Shown: piece by piece, positions 5,139 through 44,985 of the stretch
How the letters are laid out: each line of letters opens with the position of its first letter
Position numbering within the stretch: position 1 is the stretch's first letter
Assembly: GCA_934157035.1 (NCBI GenBank)
Contig: CAKPHG010000004.1
Coordinates: 53,594-117,593, forward strand
DNA from: an uncultured Clostridia bacterium
GTDB lineage: Bacteria > Bacillota > Clostridia > TANB77 > CAG-508
DNA: 64,000 bases
Direction of reading: 5' to 3'
Notes under the pieces: model-generated
What the model saw: only the letters and a program-made list of their open reading frames with translations
Databases searched by the model: none
What the model was told of the DNA's origin: nothing
Program-made: the position numbers and the translations under genes

Positions 5139-5879
5139 TTATTCAACTCCACATATTGCTAAAAAAGTATAACATTCATAATATGATTTTCCTTCTTCTG
5201 AACCTACTCTTGTCATTGTTGATGTTATAACATCTTCTTCTTTAAGTTCTACTAATGACCCACTTGTTATGGTTTCTCCATTTAAGGTTAGAGTATATGT
5301 GTTTTTTCCTCCATTACTTGATTCTGTATGGTTATATGTTGTTTTTCCATAATAGTATGCATATACATACGCAGGTCCAGTGTATGTGCTTTCATAAGTT
5401 AATGTAGCTGTTGTTTTTGTTCCTGAATAACTTTCTTTTCTATTATAATTACAAAATAGCATGGCTGGGTTAGTTCCTGTTCCTCCACCTGAACTACCAC
5501 CACTTGAACTGCCTGTTTTTATTTTTCTTATGTTGTCTGCCATAGTTTTAGTTGTATCCGTTTCTTGTGTTGGAACTCCTTTTTCTGTAATAGCTGTTGC
5601 TATTGCTTTTTTATGTGCTTGTAATTCTTCTTTCAACTCGCGTATTTTATCGTAAGCTAGTCCACCATTTACAGTATTTCCACCCATAAAATCATATAGT
5701 TCATTTATATCTTGTTCTTCGCCTTCCATAAAGTTTTCTGTGTTTTTCTTTGTATCTTTAGCTTTATTAAGTATTCCATTTTCTCCAACTGTCATATTAA
5801 TAGTAATTCCCGCAATAATTATTAACACAATTATTGTTATTACTAAACTTACAAGAGTTATACCACTTTCTCTTTTCAT
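5139..5879 (-). CDS. prepilin-type (class III signal) N-terminal domain protein, pilin/pseudopilin-like; Gly/Ser/Thr/Tyr-rich C-terminus
   Basis: N-terminus MKRESG|ITLVSLVITIIVLIIIAG resembles type IV pilin leader + hydrophobic helix, but lacks the conserved Glu+5. Confidence 0.4.
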   Translation of the reverse strand: MKRESGITLVSLVITIIVLIIIAGITINMTVGENGILNKAKDTKKNTENFMEGEEQDINELYDFMGGNTVNGGLAYDKIRELKEELQAHKKAIATAITEKGVPTQETDTTKTMADNIRKIKTGSSSGGSSGGGTGTNPAMLFCNYNRKESYSGTKTTATLTYESTYTGPAYVYAYYYGKTTYNHTESSNGGKNTYTLTLNGETITSGSLVELKEEDVITSTMTRVGSEEGKSYYECYTFLAICGVE

Positions 5880-39919: not shown

Positions 39920-40696
39920 CTATTTTATAACTTGTTTCATACATCCATAAACTAAACCTACCCATGTTGAAGAGTTTGGACAAAATCTCTTTTGCACTCC
40001 TGATAATGTCTTACCAGAATAATAAGATCCTCCCTCTGTTAAGTATCTATTGTGTAATAATTTAGCTGCAGCTTCTAAACCTTCTGCTGGTGTTGAATAT
40101 CTAATTAATTTTCCTCCAGACATCATACTAATATAATTACAAGTATTTCTATGGTTAGATGCTATACTCCATCCTGATTCAGCTGCAATTAATCCACAAA
40201 AGAATATTTCGTTTATTTCATATTCTTCACATATATCATATATTGCTTCAGCATTTTCTGCAAAAAATCCTGAATAGTCTACTTTCATATTAGCCATTAA
40301 ATTTATAAAGTCTTCTTTTGATATTCCGCATCTTTTACTTAAATCCATGTCTCTTGAAATTGTTATTTCTTCTATAGATATATACTTTGGTTGTTCCTCT
40401 TGTATAGTTTCTTTTGTTGTTCTTTCTTCTGAAAATCTTGTTGTAGTTTCTACATTTCTTTCTTGAGTAATAGTTTGTACACTTTGAGCAACAACTAACT
40501 GTTCTTCTACTCCATTATTATCTTCTTTCGTATCTACTTTTGCTAATTTTACATTGTTTAATGTAAATAATTGAATATTAGCTCCTAATGTTACTAGTAT
40601 TAAAAATATTGCTATAAAATTTTTTACTTTCAGGGAACTTTCTCCATTATTTTTCATTTTTTCAACATCCTTTCTTAGTGACTTTTTTTCAGCCAC
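39920..40696 (-). CDS. membrane-anchored glucosaminidase-like (GH73/FlgJ-type) domain protein
   Basis: N-terminal TM; C-terminal GLIAAESGWS...N motif resembling GH73 N-acetylglucosaminidases. Confidence 0.55.
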   Translation of the reverse strand: MAEKKSLRKDVEKMKNNGESSLKVKNFIAIFLILVTLGANIQLFTLNNVKLAKVDTKEDNNGVEEQLVVAQSVQTITQERNVETTTRFSEERTTKETIQEEQPKYISIEEITISRDMDLSKRCGISKEDFINLMANMKVDYSGFFAENAEAIYDICEEYEINEIFFCGLIAAESGWSIASNHRNTCNYISMMSGGKLIRYSTPAEGLEAAAKLLHNRYLTEGGSYYSGKTLSGVQKRFCPNSSTWVGLVYGCMKQVIK

Positions 40697-40834: not shown

Positions 40835-41545
40835 TTAATCTTCAGGAATAATTTTAATTTTTTTAACACCAAGAATTTTTTCCCATCTTCTAGCGTTTTC
40901 TCCTCCTTTTCCTATGACGAGTCCCAATATTCCTTTTGGTACAATCAAATACAAGTAACCTTCTTTAGCAACTTTGTTCATATCAACAACAACTGAATAT
41001 CCAGTAATAAATCCACTGGCATAATAACAAACTAAAACTTTAAAATGATCTTTGTTCATTTCAATGTCTTCGTTTCCATTGATTGTTTCTGCTGTAATTC
41101 TAAAATCTGAAACTATTTTGATTACTCCTCCATTCAAAGTTTCTTTCAAACTTCTGTACCTTCCTACTTCTTTTAAAATAGCTTTGTATTTTCTTATTTC
41201 CTCGTTTACAAAACCTCTTGTCTTATTTGCCATACTTATTGAATCTTTCGTAGGAATTTTTACGGTATATTCTTTTACATACCGATATTCTCCCTGCATA
41301 AAAGCATAAAATGGCAATGTAACCTCGGTTTCTTCATAAGTAGACGGATTCCAAAATTTGCATTGGTCTTCTACTATTGAGTAAGGTATTTTATTGTTTC
41401 TTAATATTCCTTCATACTCAATAGGTACCTTAGGCAACACTGGATTATAATCATCCATTATTATTTTGCACCGTCTATTTTCAAAGACAACGCATTTGTT
41501 GGGTAATTCCCCTATACATGTAGTTCTCATTTTAACTGTTTGCAT
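40835..41545 (-). CDS. hypothetical protein with C-terminal KH-like domain
   Basis: GGAGG RBS before ATG 41545; C-terminal VPKGILGLVIGKGGENARRWEKILGV resembles a KH (GXXG) motif. Confidence 0.5.
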   Translation of the reverse strand: MQTVKMRTTCIGELPNKCVVFENRRCKIIMDDYNPVLPKVPIEYEGILRNNKIPYSIVEDQCKFWNPSTYEETEVTLPFYAFMQGEYRYVKEYTVKIPTKDSISMANKTRGFVNEEIRKYKAILKEVGRYRSLKETLNGGVIKIVSDFRITAETINGNEDIEMNKDHFKVLVCYYASGFITGYSVVVDMNKVAKEGYLYLIVPKGILGLVIGKGGENARRWEKILGVKKIKIIPED

Positions 41546-41681
41546 ATTCTTCCTCCTTTTACATGTAGATGTTAAATTTTTCAATGTGCTTTATAATACT
41601 TCCTATTTTATCACATTATGTTCACTTTTGCAACAAAAAGAAAGAAAAGCACTAAAAATAGTTGCTCTTCTTTCTTTAATT

Positions 41682-44414
41682 TTATTCGTCTTTTGTTGTA
41701 TTTATTCTTAATAATTTAAATATTTCTACTATAACAAGTGGAGCAAATACAAGTGCTATTGTTTCAATTATATTAGCTGTTGGTAAAACTGGTATACTAA
41801 ATACTTCTCTTAAGAATGGTACAAATAGTATTACCAACATAAGTGCTGCTGACACTGCAATAGCTAATAATAAATATTTATTAGTTAAAGCTTTTGTTTT
41901 AAATATTGATTTTTTGTTATTTCTTACGTTAAATACATGAACAAGTTCTGATAGTGCTAAAACTGTAAATGCCATTGTTTGGCCTATTTCTACTTTTATT
42001 TCTTGCACACTTAATCCTTCTATTTGTGGAAGTTCAGCTTCTGGTGTAGCTAATCCTATAATAAATGCTGCAAGTGTTAATAATCCTATCATTACTCCTT
42101 GGTATATTACTCTCCATGTCATTCCTTTTGTAAATATTCCTTTTCCGCTTTTTAAAGGCTTTCTTTCCATTATATCTTCTTCTGCTGGATCTACTGCTAG
42201 TGCTAAAGCTGGAAGTGAATCTGTTACTAAGTTTATCCATAATATATGAATTGGAAGTAATGGAACTATTAGGCTAACATCTATTCCAAATTTGCTTGAA
42301 AGCCATGGTGTAATTAATATTGCTACAAATAGAATAATAATTTCTCCTACGTTGCTAGATAATAAATATTGTATTGCTTTTAATATATTGTCATATATAC
42401 GTCTTCCTTCTTCTACTGCTGACACTACTGTTGCAAAGTTATCGTCTGTTAGTATTACATCTGAAGCTTCTTTTGCAACATCTGTTCCTACCATTCCCAT
42501 ACTACAGCCAATATCTGCTGTTTTTAGTGCTGGTGCATCATTTACACCATCACCTGTCATTGCAACTATTTCTCCATTTTTTTGCCATGCTTTTACTATT
42601 CTTACTTTATGCTCTGGTGATACTCTTGCATATACACTATATTTTCTAACATTTTGCTCTAATTCTTCTTGACTCATTTCTTCAAGTTCTGCACCTGTTA
42701 TTGCTTCTTCATCATTTTCCAAAATGCCTAATTGTCTTGCTATTGCTATTGCTGTTATTTTATGATCTCCTGTAATCATAACTGTTTTTATTCCTGCAGT
42801 TTTACATTTTTCTACCGCTTTTCTTGCTTCTTCTCTTGGTGGATCTATCATTCCAACCATTCCAACAAATATCAAATCATTTTCTATATTTTTCATCTCT
42901 TCTTTTGTTGGCATATGATCCATTTCTTTATAAGCCATTCCAAGTACTCTTAAAGCATCTTGTGCCATCGCTTCGTTATTTCTTGCTATTGTTTCTTTAT
43001 ATTCTTCTAGGTTGTTTTCTATTTTTCCATCTAAAATGTAAGCTTTACATCTTGCAAGTACTTCGTCTATTCCACCTTTTGTATAAATAAAATATGTTTT
43101 TCCAGCTTTATGAACTGTTGTCATTAATTTTCTATCTGAATCAAATGGAATTTCCTCTACTCTTGGATATTCTTCATATAAAGCTGGTGGAAAATCTAAC
43201 TCAAATCCCATATCTACTAATGCTGTTTCTGTTGGATCTCCCGTTAAAGTGTTGTCTGAAGCTACTTTTGTATCATTGCAAAGCATGCTTATATATACTA
43301 ATTTTTTTAATTCTTCATTGTTATTGTTTACTTTTGCATTTTCTACATTTTGTAAAATATCATCGTAAAATACTTTTTGTACTGTCATTTTGTTTTGTGT
43401 TAATGTTCCTGTTTTGTCTGAACATATAACTGTTGCACTACCCAAAGTTTCTACTGCAGGAAGTTTTTTTACAATAGCGTTTTTCTTTACCATTCTTTGA
43501 ACACCTATTGCTAAAACTATTGTTGAAACTGCTGCTAAGCCTTCTGGTATAGCTGCTACCGCCAAACTTACAGCTGTCATAAACATTTCTAATGCATCTT
43601 TTCCTATAGCTATTCCTATAATAAAAATAACTATACATATAAGAACTGCTGCTATTCCTAATGTTTTTCCTAATTTATTTAATTTTTCTTGAAGTGGTGT
43701 ATCTGTGCTTTCTACACCAGTTATTATTTCTGCTATTTTACCTACTTCTGTATTCATTCCTGTTGCTACTACTATTGCTTTTCCTCTACCATAAGTAATT
43801 AAACTAGATGAAAATAACATATTACTTCTATCGCCAATACCTATTTTTTCTTCTTCAATGGTATCTGTATTTTTTTCTACTGGAACAGATTCTCCTGTTA
43901 ATGAAGATTCTTGAGCTTTTAAATTTGCTCCTTCACAAATTCTTAAATCTGCTGGTACATAGTCTCCTGTATCTAGTACAACTATATCTCCTGGCACTAA
44001 TTCCTTTGAAGGTAATACTTCCATTTTTCCATTTCTTATTACTTTCGCTGCATGAGAACTTAATTTTTGCAAAGCCTCTAAAGACTTTTCTGCCTTGTTT
44101 TCTTGTGCTACACCTATTATTGCATTTACTATTACAACTATTAAAATTATAATTGTATCTGTAATTCCTTCTCCTTGTGCAATTCCTACAGCACCTGAAA
44201 TTATTGCTGCAATAATTAAAATTATAATCATGAAATCTTTAAATTGTTCTAGAAATTTAATTATTAAACTTTTCTTTTTCTTAGCTTTTAATTCATTTAA
44301 ACCATATTTTTCTCTTGCTTTTTCTACTTGTTCTTTGTTTAATCCATTTTCGATATTTGTTTCTAATTCTTTTTCTGTTTGTTCAATACTTTTGTTAAAC
44401 CAATTTTCTTCCAA
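41682..44414 (-). CDS. P-type cation-transporting ATPase (type IIA/IIB-like; substrate Ca2+ or Mn2+)
   Basis: 910 aa; CSDKTGTLTQN phosphorylation motif, TGDGVNDAPALK hinge, 10 TM helices; TTG start after AAGGAG RBS. Confidence 0.9.
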   Translation of the reverse strand: MEENWFNKSIEQTEKELETNIENGLNKEQVEKAREKYGLNELKAKKKKSLIIKFLEQFKDFMIIILIIAAIISGAVGIAQGEGITDTIIILIVVIVNAIIGVAQENKAEKSLEALQKLSSHAAKVIRNGKMEVLPSKELVPGDIVVLDTGDYVPADLRICEGANLKAQESSLTGESVPVEKNTDTIEEEKIGIGDRSNMLFSSSLITYGRGKAIVVATGMNTEVGKIAEIITGVESTDTPLQEKLNKLGKTLGIAAVLICIVIFIIGIAIGKDALEMFMTAVSLAVAAIPEGLAAVSTIVLAIGVQRMVKKNAIVKKLPAVETLGSATVICSDKTGTLTQNKMTVQKVFYDDILQNVENAKVNNNNEELKKLVYISMLCNDTKVASDNTLTGDPTETALVDMGFELDFPPALYEEYPRVEEIPFDSDRKLMTTVHKAGKTYFIYTKGGIDEVLARCKAYILDGKIENNLEEYKETIARNNEAMAQDALRVLGMAYKEMDHMPTKEEMKNIENDLIFVGMVGMIDPPREEARKAVEKCKTAGIKTVMITGDHKITAIAIARQLGILENDEEAITGAELEEMSQEELEQNVRKYSVYARVSPEHKVRIVKAWQKNGEIVAMTGDGVNDAPALKTADIGCSMGMVGTDVAKEASDVILTDDNFATVVSAVEEGRRIYDNILKAIQYLLSSNVGEIIILFVAILITPWLSSKFGIDVSLIVPLLPIHILWINLVTDSLPALALAVDPAEEDIMERKPLKSGKGIFTKGMTWRVIYQGVMIGLLTLAAFIIGLATPEAELPQIEGLSVQEIKVEIGQTMAFTVLALSELVHVFNVRNNKKSIFKTKALTNKYLLLAIAVSAALMLVILFVPFLREVFSIPVLPTANIIETIALVFAPLVIVEIFKLLRINTTKDE

Positions 44415-44544
44415 TTTTCATTTCTCCTTTTTATTATTTTTTCCATTTTTTTGTTTAATAGTCCATTTTTTCTAAACTTTCTTCATCTCCTTTTAACATT
44501 TTTCTCAAAAGTACATTATACTTTTTCGAATAATTACCTTTTAG

Positions 44545-44690
44545 TAAAATAAAAAATAAGACTCCTAAAGAAAACACTACATTTACATGTACTCCTTTCT
44601 TTAAAAGTCTTGCTTACCTTAAAGGTTACTAACCATGCATTTTCTGCCGAGATGTTGATTAGTAGTTTATAAGCTACTCCCCTTTAAATT
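44545..44690 (-). ncRNA. candidate yybP-ykoY (Mn2+) riboswitch with terminator-type expression platform in the P-type ATPase leader
   Basis: Minus strand: AAAGGGGAGUAGC followed by hairpin AGUAGCUUAUAAACUACU, then GCAAGAC shared with a terminator hairpin (plus 44558..44611) and a U-run. Assignment from memory of the GGGGAGUAG consensus; not verified. Confidence 0.35.
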
Positions 44691-44747
44691 TTTTATTATT
44701 TTACCATTTGTTTTTTATTTTGGCAAGTCATTTTTACTTTTTTTACT

Positions 44748-44775
44748 TGAAAGTATTTTTTATATGTTATATAAT
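44748..44775 (+). promoter_or_regulatory. promoter (TTGAAA-16-TATAAT) for the tRNA-Gly-like gene
   Basis: TTGAAA 44748..44753, TATAAT 44770..44775, about 16 nt before the tRNA 5' end. Confidence 0.45.
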
Positions 44776-44791: not shown

Positions 44792-44865
<74 letters not shown>

Positions 44866-44985
44866 TTTAAAATCAACTTACGGACTTAATTGTTCGTAAG
44901 TTTTTTTATAATAGATAATATCAAAAAAGAGGAAAAAATTATAAAAACGATAAAGACAATATCATCTAAACGTTGTCTTTATCAT

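Follow-up and report, generated by a model that had tools for sequence, protein, structure and literature searches.

A P2-less riboswitch of the yybP-ykoY (Mn2+) class, probably a transcriptional ON switch, upstream of a P-type ATPase gene in uncultured gut Clostridia

We analyzed a stretch of 64,000 nucleotides (nt) from an uncultured Clostridia bacterium of the lineage TANB77, CAG-508 (assembly GCA_934157035.1, contig CAKPHG010000004.1, positions 53,594 to 117,593), which we refer to as the window and which has a G+C content of about 27%. The locus studied here consists of a riboswitch leader and the pump gene that follows it, both on the minus strand. The leader sits between a divergent tRNA-Gly(UCC) gene (44792-44865) and an open reading frame (ORF) of 910 amino acids that begins with TTG. 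Read along the minus strand, the locus contains a promoter-like site, an aptamer, a long hairpin with a U-tract, a spacer of about 130 nt, the sequence AAGGAG, and the TTG start (Table 1). A first-pass annotation, made from the letters alone, had proposed a yybP-ykoY-type riboswitch ahead of this P-type ATPase gene. This proposal is supported by the conservation and covariation of the element, by its colinearity with validated aptamers, and by its gene context. Taken together, the data indicate that the leader very probably belongs to the yybP-ykoY (Mn2+) class and acts as a transcriptional ON riboswitch, with a three-way junction and no P2.

The core sequences of the class are present in the leader. 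We found GGGGAGUAGC at 44682-44673 (-) and GCAAGAC at 44613-44607 (-). The class-defining L1 5' strand, GGGGAGUAG, is present as GGAGUAG at 44680-44674, and this GGAGUAG aligns to GGGGAGUAGC of the Rfam family RF00080, of Escherichia coli mntP, and of E. coli alx. GGGAGTAGC occurs once in the 64-kb window, versus 0.09 occurrences expected by chance. On the other side of L1, AAGA at 44611-44608 directly precedes C44607, and AGAC is invariant in relatives; throughout the yybP-ykoY class, AGA is a fixed motif of the L1 3' strand (PMC6649816). Within L3, AACA at 44656-44653 is invariant, as is the C44657-G44634 pair that closes P3.1. The invariant nucleotides GGAGUAG, AGA, CAACA, and the P3.1-closing C-G are those that the literature assigns to the metal site and to the docking of the two legs (PMC6649816, PMC12153347). 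By analogy with the L1 adenosine described in the same papers (PMC6649816, PMC12153347), A44678 would be the cross-helix A-minor adenosine, and the C44657-G44634 pair is the putative G-C receptor for this A-minor contact. Going by the contacts described in PMC6649816, C44654 and A44653 would be the C and A of L3 that contact the metal.

TABLE 1 Features of the leader and the pump gene, listed in the minus-strand direction
Feature	Positions in the window	Strand	Basis or remark
Promoter-like site	44698..44726	-	-35 TTGCCA (44726-44721), 17-nt spacer, extended -10 TGgTAAAAT (44706-44698)
Whole aptamer, yybP-ykoY class, three-way junction without P2	44600..44688	-	Clade model (R1) match, covariation, partial RF00080 match
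P1.1 5' strand UUUAAAGG (switch helix)	44681..44688	-	Pairs with 44607-44600
L1 5' strand GGAGUAG	44674..44680	-	Invariant in 68/68 aligned relatives; G44674 also opens P1.2
P1.2 5' strand GCUU	44671..44674	-	Pairs with 44615-44612
A-rich single-stranded linker AUAAAC, replacing the P2 hairpin	44665..44670	-	Relatives and mntP alignment
P3.1 5' strand UACUAAUC	44657..44664	-	99.8% paired in relatives
L3 5' strand AACAUCUCG	44648..44656	-	CAACA invariant in relatives; aligns to UCAACAU of RF00080 and mntP
P3.2 distal hairpin GCA-GAAAA-UGC	44637..44647	-	Hairpin kept in relatives
L3 3' strand (AU) and P3.1 3' strand GGUUAGUA	44627..44636	-	Covariation of P3.1
P4 hairpin ACC-UUUAA-GGU	44616..44626	-	Folding of relatives, covariation
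P1.2 3' strand (AAGC) and L1 3' strand (AAGA)	44608..44615	-	G.AGAC invariant in relatives
P1.1 3' strand CUUUUAAA, common to the terminator 5' arm	44600..44607	-	Folding, conservation
Intrinsic terminator	44546..44609	-	Hairpin 44609-44560, then U-tract UUAUUUUUUAUUUU at 44559-44546
Shine-Dalgarno sequence AAGGAG of the pump gene	44424..44429	-	AGGAG conserved 7-10 nt before the start codon in relatives
Regulated gene, 910-amino-acid P2-type cation ATPase, TTG start	41682..44414	-	Pfam, NCBIfam, structure match

Between P1.2 and P3.1, all relatives have a linker of 5 to 7 nt and no P2 hairpin. The P2-less three-way junction is a known variation of the class: P2 and P4 can be replaced by single strands (PMC6649816), and the aptamer of E. 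coli alx has no P2 (PMC12153347). Thus, a four-way junction with P2 is not strictly defining for the class. The first-pass annotation had also reported a short hairpin in the leader. AGUAG and CUACU can indeed be drawn as a hairpin; covariation assigns GUAG to L1/P1.2 and CUAC to P3.1, and we rejected the hairpin because it conflicts with these covarying pairings.

We found that the element is conserved upstream of related pump genes. A scan for relatives of the pump, with one genome taken per species, gave 80 loci (71-98% protein identity). Their hosts are uncultured gut Clostridia, among them Clostridium sp. CAG:571, CAG:492, and Candidatus Merdicola. By text search, GGGAGTAG followed 63 to 92 nt on by a GCAAGA-like sequence was present upstream of the pump gene in 70 of the 80 loci. 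We built a covariance model, R1, from 68 distinct copies of this clade, using no sequence from outside it. In the window, R1 gave a single match (44596-44693, 97.4 bits). Among the related loci, it found one copy in each of 71/80, always just upstream of the pump gene, with scores of 69 to 103 bits. Such an element goes well past what chance would give. Of the nine loci without an R1 match, one has no upstream sequence, and three have the pump gene directly after another gene. At two loci with 79-81% pump identity (L005:2580-3000 and L017:410-833), the tRNA neighbor is kept and the aptamer is absent, and these look like riboswitch loss within the lineage. The aptamer at L036:921-1072 is 152 nt long, has about 55 inserted nt around P4, and still scores 81.6 bits with the clade model.

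The helices are supported by compensatory changes. In a MAFFT alignment of the 68 clade sequences that was not fitted to the model (A1), P1.1 was 93% paired, P1.2 97%, and P3.1 99.8%. Compensatory changes in A1 were C-G to U-A (4), A-U to G-C (4), and U-A to A-U (8), and the observed covariation score was reached by 0/500 shuffles. The registers of P3.2 and P4 were mixed in the MAFFT alignment (61-65% paired), and we replaced them with per-sequence folding and model-based alignment. Two further alignments, one of the clade (A2) and one of 56 distinct, diverse metagenomic aptamers (A3), were fitted to the model, which inflates their paired fractions. Both sides of the pair changed in 14/29 pairs in A2 and in 25/29 pairs in A3; A3 was 89.9% paired, and its score was 0.604, versus 0.21 for shuffles and at most 0.13 with slid partners.

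Taken singly, the helices showed the following. P1.1, with 93% of cells paired over 68 to 70 relatives, had compensatory changes in its outer pairs and an invariant top G-C pair, and 7 of its 8 pairs had double changes in the wider metagenomic set. P1.2 was 97 to 98% paired, with U-A to U-G changes in relatives and double changes in the wider set. In P3.1, we found changes from C-G to U-A, from A-U to G-C, and from U-A to A-U or C-G, and the closing C-G pair was invariant. Per-sequence folding showed that P3.2 varies in both sequence and length (GAUAC-GAAA-GUAUC, GCAAU..AUUGC, and others), forming hairpins of 3 to 6 bp. When relatives were folded singly, a hairpin was predicted for the P4 segment in 66/68, with at least 6 different stem sequences, and all 5 pairs of P4 showed double changes.

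R1 also aligned to the two validated E. coli aptamers, with modest scores and rough E-values. On mntP, the alignment ran end to end (15.8 bits, E about 0.002 in 501 nt), with L1, P1.2, P3.1, L3, P3.2, P4, GAGA, and P1.1 in register and the P2 of mntP appearing as a 14-nt insertion exactly in the linker. On alx, the shell of P1.1, L1, and P1.2 was aligned (16.8 bits, E about 0.001).

The aptamer runs directly into an intrinsic terminator. The first-pass annotation stated that the GCAAGAC segment was shared with a terminator, and this is borne out: GAC and CUUUUAAA form the 5' arm of the terminator hairpin, which has about 21 pairs and a predicted stability of -24.3 kcal/mol. The pairing of CUUUUAAA in P1.1 and its pairing in the terminator are mutually exclusive. 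The whole-leader fold had a z-score of -4.98. In 68/70 related loci, a predicted hairpin (median, -18 kcal/mol) begins at the same GAC of L1/P1.1, with a U-rich tail after it; the remaining two loci fail solely the rule for the U-rich tail. The spacer from terminator to start codon ranges from 64 to 364 nt among relatives. We found that the whole aptamer reaches -16.7 kcal/mol, versus -24.3 for the terminator, and that the terminator prevails in the minimum-energy fold of the full leader. The terminator is far more stable than the aptamer, and therefore the default state is predicted to be termination (off).

These features suggest a mechanism. Transcription would begin just 3' of the promoter-like site, and the nascent RNA would fold into one leg of P1.1, L1, and P1.2, a second leg of P3.1, L3, and P3.2, and the P4 hairpin, with the 6-nt A-rich linker in place of P2. 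At high Mn2+, the ion would bridge L1 and L3, dock both legs, and keep the weak, A-U-rich P1.1 closed. Closed P1.1 would sequester CUUUUAAA, which would block the terminator and allow read-through over about 130 nt into the P-type ATPase gene. At low Mn2+, P1.1 would open, the more stable terminator would form, and transcription would stop at the U-tract. The pump, once made, would export surplus Mn2+ and probably Ca2+ too. ON logic has been demonstrated for Lactococcus lactis yoaB and Streptococcus pneumoniae mgtA, both of which control P-type ATPases (PMC6649816, PMC8632737). From such experimentally studied members, we infer that the element binds Mn2+, in which direction it switches, and what the pump transports.

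P2-less aptamers are also found far from this clade. We scanned metagenomes with a pattern that allowed 10 to 18 nt between GGGAGTAGC and YCAACA and obtained at least 120 loci. Among the matches listed, a complementary P1.1 was also present in 74/120, and R1 gave full-length matches in 62 of the first 100, of which 22 were of this clade and 40 were distant (27-64 bits, 34-66% G+C). Among 18 listed loci of higher G+C that we compared with Rfam 15, 9 matched RF00080 at 18 to 43 bits, with E-values down to 2e-8, and none of the 18 reached the gathering cut-off of 45 bits. Because both R1 and RF00080 match them, these metagenomic aptamers bridge the clade element to the RF00080 family. The 71 distinct first downstream ORFs among the matches listed comprised 38 P-type cation ATPases, 16 GDT1/UPF0016 proteins, 3 TerC proteins, and 1 MntP, among others. 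The GDT1/UPF0016 family is reportedly tied to Mn2+ export and to this riboswitch class, in work on MneA and on UPF0016 proteins. P-type ATPases, TerC, and MntP are likewise families tied to Mn2+ export and to this class (PMC8632737). The aptamers came from soil, sediment, marine, and gut metagenomes (for example, L132:3057-3155, L105:774-875, L144:6494-6594, and L134 near 5706-5792). The data largely establish P2-less Mn2+ aptamers as a widespread subclass that is unannotated under the current Rfam cut-off.

The gene downstream encodes a cation pump with the Pfam domains E1-E2_ATPase, Cation_ATPase_N, and Cation_ATPase_C. In NCBIfam, the PMR1-type and SERCA-type Ca2+ ATPase models were the best matches and fell below their cut-offs, and the PMCA-type model scored above its own. 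We found the motifs DKTGT, AIPEGL (transmembrane segment 4 [TM4]), SSNVGE (TM5), NLVTD (TM6), and LSELV, which carries the TM8 Glu. Among solved structures, Listeria LMCA1 is the closest (748 bits); like the pump, it has a P2-type architecture, a PEGL motif, and an Asp in TM6. In contrast, LMCA1 carries Ala in TM5, Asn in TM6, and Arg in TM8, where the pump of the window carries Glu, Thr, and Glu. SERCA has Glu (TM5), Thr (TM6), and Glu (TM8) at these positions. Because the TM5 Glu, TM6 Thr, and TM8 Glu are present, the pump looks two-site like SERCA, not single-site like LMCA1.

The first-pass annotation had suggested that the pump would be a Mn2+ efflux ATPase rather than a Ca2+ pump. This overreaches, as the SERCA-type residues of PEGL, NVGE, and NLVTD and the TM8 Glu are all kept. 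A comparison of ion-site residues showed no difference: the same residues are present in riboswitch-linked pumps of distant organisms and in 9 relatives without the riboswitch. Under Mn stress, the MgtA protein of S. pneumoniae reduces the Mn2+ content of the cell, and it is an exporter of Ca2+ as well (PMC6649816). By analogy with MgtA, a dual Mn2+/Ca2+ role seems likelier than a pump for Mn2+ only. The regulation argues for Mn2+ detoxification, and the chemistry of the sites argues that Ca2+ transport is retained.

Several observations weigh against placing the element in the Mn2+ class. When we scanned the window with Rfam 15 at gathering thresholds, we found 3 tRNAs only and no match to RF00080. 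At permissive settings, RF00080 matched 44694-44579 at 11.9 bits, versus the 45 bits of the cut-off (E, 0.5 in 601 nt and 0.11 in 131 nt), and the convincing part of the alignment was limited to GGGGAGUAGC and the stem flanking UCAACAU...UGG. The fold of the isolated aptamer had a z-score of -1.26, i.e., it is thermodynamically ordinary. The modest R1 scores on the E. coli aptamers and the model fitting of A2 and A3 count on this side as well. Eight relatives with adequate upstream sequence have the pump gene and no element. In the pump itself, the ion-site residues are of the Ca2+-pump type, with every SERCA-type Ca2+-site residue kept; we found no residue at the ion sites that separates the riboswitch-linked pumps from the 9 unlinked relatives and no Mn2+-specific signature.

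The Rfam result has to be read against its controls. A search with RF00080 was a check named in the first-pass annotation, which held that the lack of a significant hit would refute the proposal; there is no significant match, but the validated members show that this test is unsound with this Rfam copy. The E. coli alx leader (L081:6369-6505) gave no RF00080 match at an E-value of 1 or less, and E. coli mntP (L082:4462-4578) gave 41.6 bits, under the family's own 45-bit cut-off. Because validated alx and mntP also miss the cut-off, a sub-threshold RF00080 score says little, and the 45-bit cut-off is not discriminating in this Rfam copy. The consensus structure of RF00080 has its 5' 25 positions unpaired, shows neither P1.1 nor pairing of the L1 3' strand, and takes in a long U-rich segment on its 3' side. 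We rejected the other sub-threshold Rfam matches (SpF19, 22.7 bits; PyrR, 17.8 bits; and several miRNAs), all of which scored far under their cut-offs and fell largely on the A/U-rich terminator. The match to the Streptococcus small RNA SpF19 (RF02430; 44549-44645, minus strand; cut-off, 60) covers P4, the L1 3' strand, and the terminator and is probably compositional.

The Ca2+-type sites of the pump raise the question of whether the same fold and switch might answer to a signal other or wider than Mn2+, such as Ca2+, another transition metal, or a pH-tuned input as in alx. The retention of both SERCA-type Ca2+ sites would fit such a signal. [quoted passage not shown] In addition, P2-less alx couples Mn2+ sensing to pH, and the L3 sequence differs among members (PMC12153347). 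However, the nucleotides of the metal site in L1 and L3 are those that never vary in the Mn2+ class, and in S. pneumoniae read-through is driven by Mn2+, not by Ca2+, both in vitro and in vivo (PMC6649816). Moreover, P2-less relatives among the matches listed precede genes for the Mn2+ exporters GDT1, TerC, and MntP. We consider a different or wider signal unlikely. It is also a rather improbable idea that the aptamer has drifted in selectivity, senses Ca2+ alone or together with Mn2+, and acts as a Ca2+-homeostasis riboswitch for the two-site, SERCA-like pump; PMC6649816 notes the lack of any described Ca2+-specific sensor in bacteria.

The lack of a gathering match in Rfam and the weak, overlapping SpF19 and PyrR matches would suit a conserved leader that attenuates through a protein or small-RNA partner and merely resembles the Mn2+ aptamer. 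An interaction between a small RNA and the yybP-ykoY element of Staphylococcus aureus is reported in a preprint (bioRxiv 10.1101/2024.09.30.615890). We regard such a leader as very unlikely here: the core nucleotides and helices of the class are all there, in the same linear order as in mntP, the bridging sequences are significant RF00080 matches, and the matches to other families have the low scores and the terminator bias described above. As for a chance occurrence of GGGGAGUAG and GCAAGAC beside an ordinary terminator in an A+T-rich intergenic region, the motif is short, and the single-sequence fold of the aptamer is no better than that of shuffles. This reading is hardly credible, with one match in the window against the 0.09 expected, and conservation of the element in 71 orthologous loci with compensatory changes has already refuted it.

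The reading that we favor, a P2-less, transcriptional ON riboswitch of the Mn2+ class, makes the element an ordinary new example of a well-known regulator; it is no new kind of element and involves no new mechanism. It corrects the likely role of a gene that was automatically annotated as a calcium pump, the expression of which is most probably switched on by excess Mn2+. The product is most probably a detoxification pump for Mn2+ (probably also for Ca2+) in an uncultured, A+T-rich lineage of gut Clostridia. The Rfam gathering score misses the whole P2-less subclass, in this copy even both validated E. coli members, and Mn2+ riboswitches are therefore under-annotated in metagenome-assembled genomes.

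At the upstream end of the leader, a consensus scan found that the promoter-like site has 10/12 consensus matches, plus the TG. Under a strict rule, a similar site lies 15 to 17 nt before GGGAGUAG in about 20/69 related loci. If this site functions as a promoter, as its sequence suggests, it would put the transcript start a few bases ahead of P1.1. The tRNA-Gly(UCC) gene has its own near-consensus promoter, TTGAAA-17-TATAAT (44747-44775, +), and a terminator-like hairpin at its 3' side (44875-44902, +). The promoters of the tRNA gene and the pump leader stand back to back within about 50 nt. At two related loci (L026:2700-2790 and L066:10-100), a tRNA gene of the same orientation ends about 20 to 25 nt ahead of the aptamer, and we found no recognizable promoter between the tRNA gene and the aptamer; the riboswitch there may be transcribed from the tRNA promoter. 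The GC skew of the plus strand is strongly negative across the window (1-64000; about -0.25 in most 4-kb bins). The ORFs near the riboswitch are mainly on the minus strand, which together with the skew is consistent with a single replichore and a strong strand bias.

The TTG start of the pump gene, which the first-pass annotation had pointed out, is supported by the conserved Shine-Dalgarno sequence and by the orthologous codon, which is ATG in 26 loci and TTG in 23. The same annotation had described an 8-codon, out-of-frame upstream ORF (uORF) as adding regulatory complexity. The uORF exists (ATG at 44421-44419, end at 44395), with its ATG 2 nt past the Shine-Dalgarno sequence. It is absent from 3/4 relatives that are 97 to 98% identical. 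Since it is not conserved, we treated it as a chance ORF; a regulatory contribution was not demonstrable.

Directly 3' of the pump gene is an ORF of 249 amino acids (40835-41584, -) that has no Pfam match and a terminal GKGGENARRWEKILGVKKIKI segment. It is absent from this position in the four closest relatives, where a homologue of the ORF at 39920-40696 follows the pump gene, and it is possibly a recent insertion. We found no terminator-like site after the pump gene. We considered a co-regulated operon and rejected it, as the closest relatives show no synteny for the ORF at 40835-41584 and the ORF after it is adjacent only sometimes. Because the downstream genes are not consistently syntenic, the regulated unit is probably the pump gene alone.

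Among the known members of the class, we compared the element with mgtA of S. pneumoniae (SN44), with which it has in common the three-way junction, a terminator overlapping the P1.1 3' strand, the ON logic expected here, and a target gene for a PII-type cation ATPase (PMC6649816). GGAGUAG, AGA, the L3 C and A, and the C-G receptor pair are conserved between the two (PMC6649816). The three-way junctions differ in how they arise: the pneumococcal RNA has no P4 (UNAAA in its place) and keeps P2, whereas the RNA of the window has no P2 (AUAAAC in its place) and keeps P4. The host also differs, being here an uncultured gut Clostridia bacterium of about 27% G+C whose element is predicted from sequence. 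L. lactis yoaB and E. coli mntP, the members with crystal structures, have the same L1/L3 core, P1.1 switch helix, and helix order (PMC6649816, PMC12153347, PMC8632737), and yoaB resembles the element further in its terminator and its P-type ATPase target. In contrast, yoaB and mntP are four-way junctions with a P2 hairpin, and mntP acts on translation.

E. coli alx is likewise a P2-less three-way junction and is also missed by RF00080. Unlike the element described here, alx is translational and pH tuned, precedes a TerC-family gene, has a terminator inside P4, and is described as restricted to Enterobacterales (PMC12153347), whereas the element of the window, in Clostridia, precedes a P-type ATPase gene and has a plain terminator/antiterminator platform. 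Clostridioides difficile has a predicted Mn2+ riboswitch before the P-type ATPase gene CD2503 (PMC11477304). The two cases are alike in having a host of the class Clostridia and one predicted Mn2+ riboswitch before a gene for a cation-translocating P-type ATPase; they differ in that the C. difficile element was found by standard annotation.

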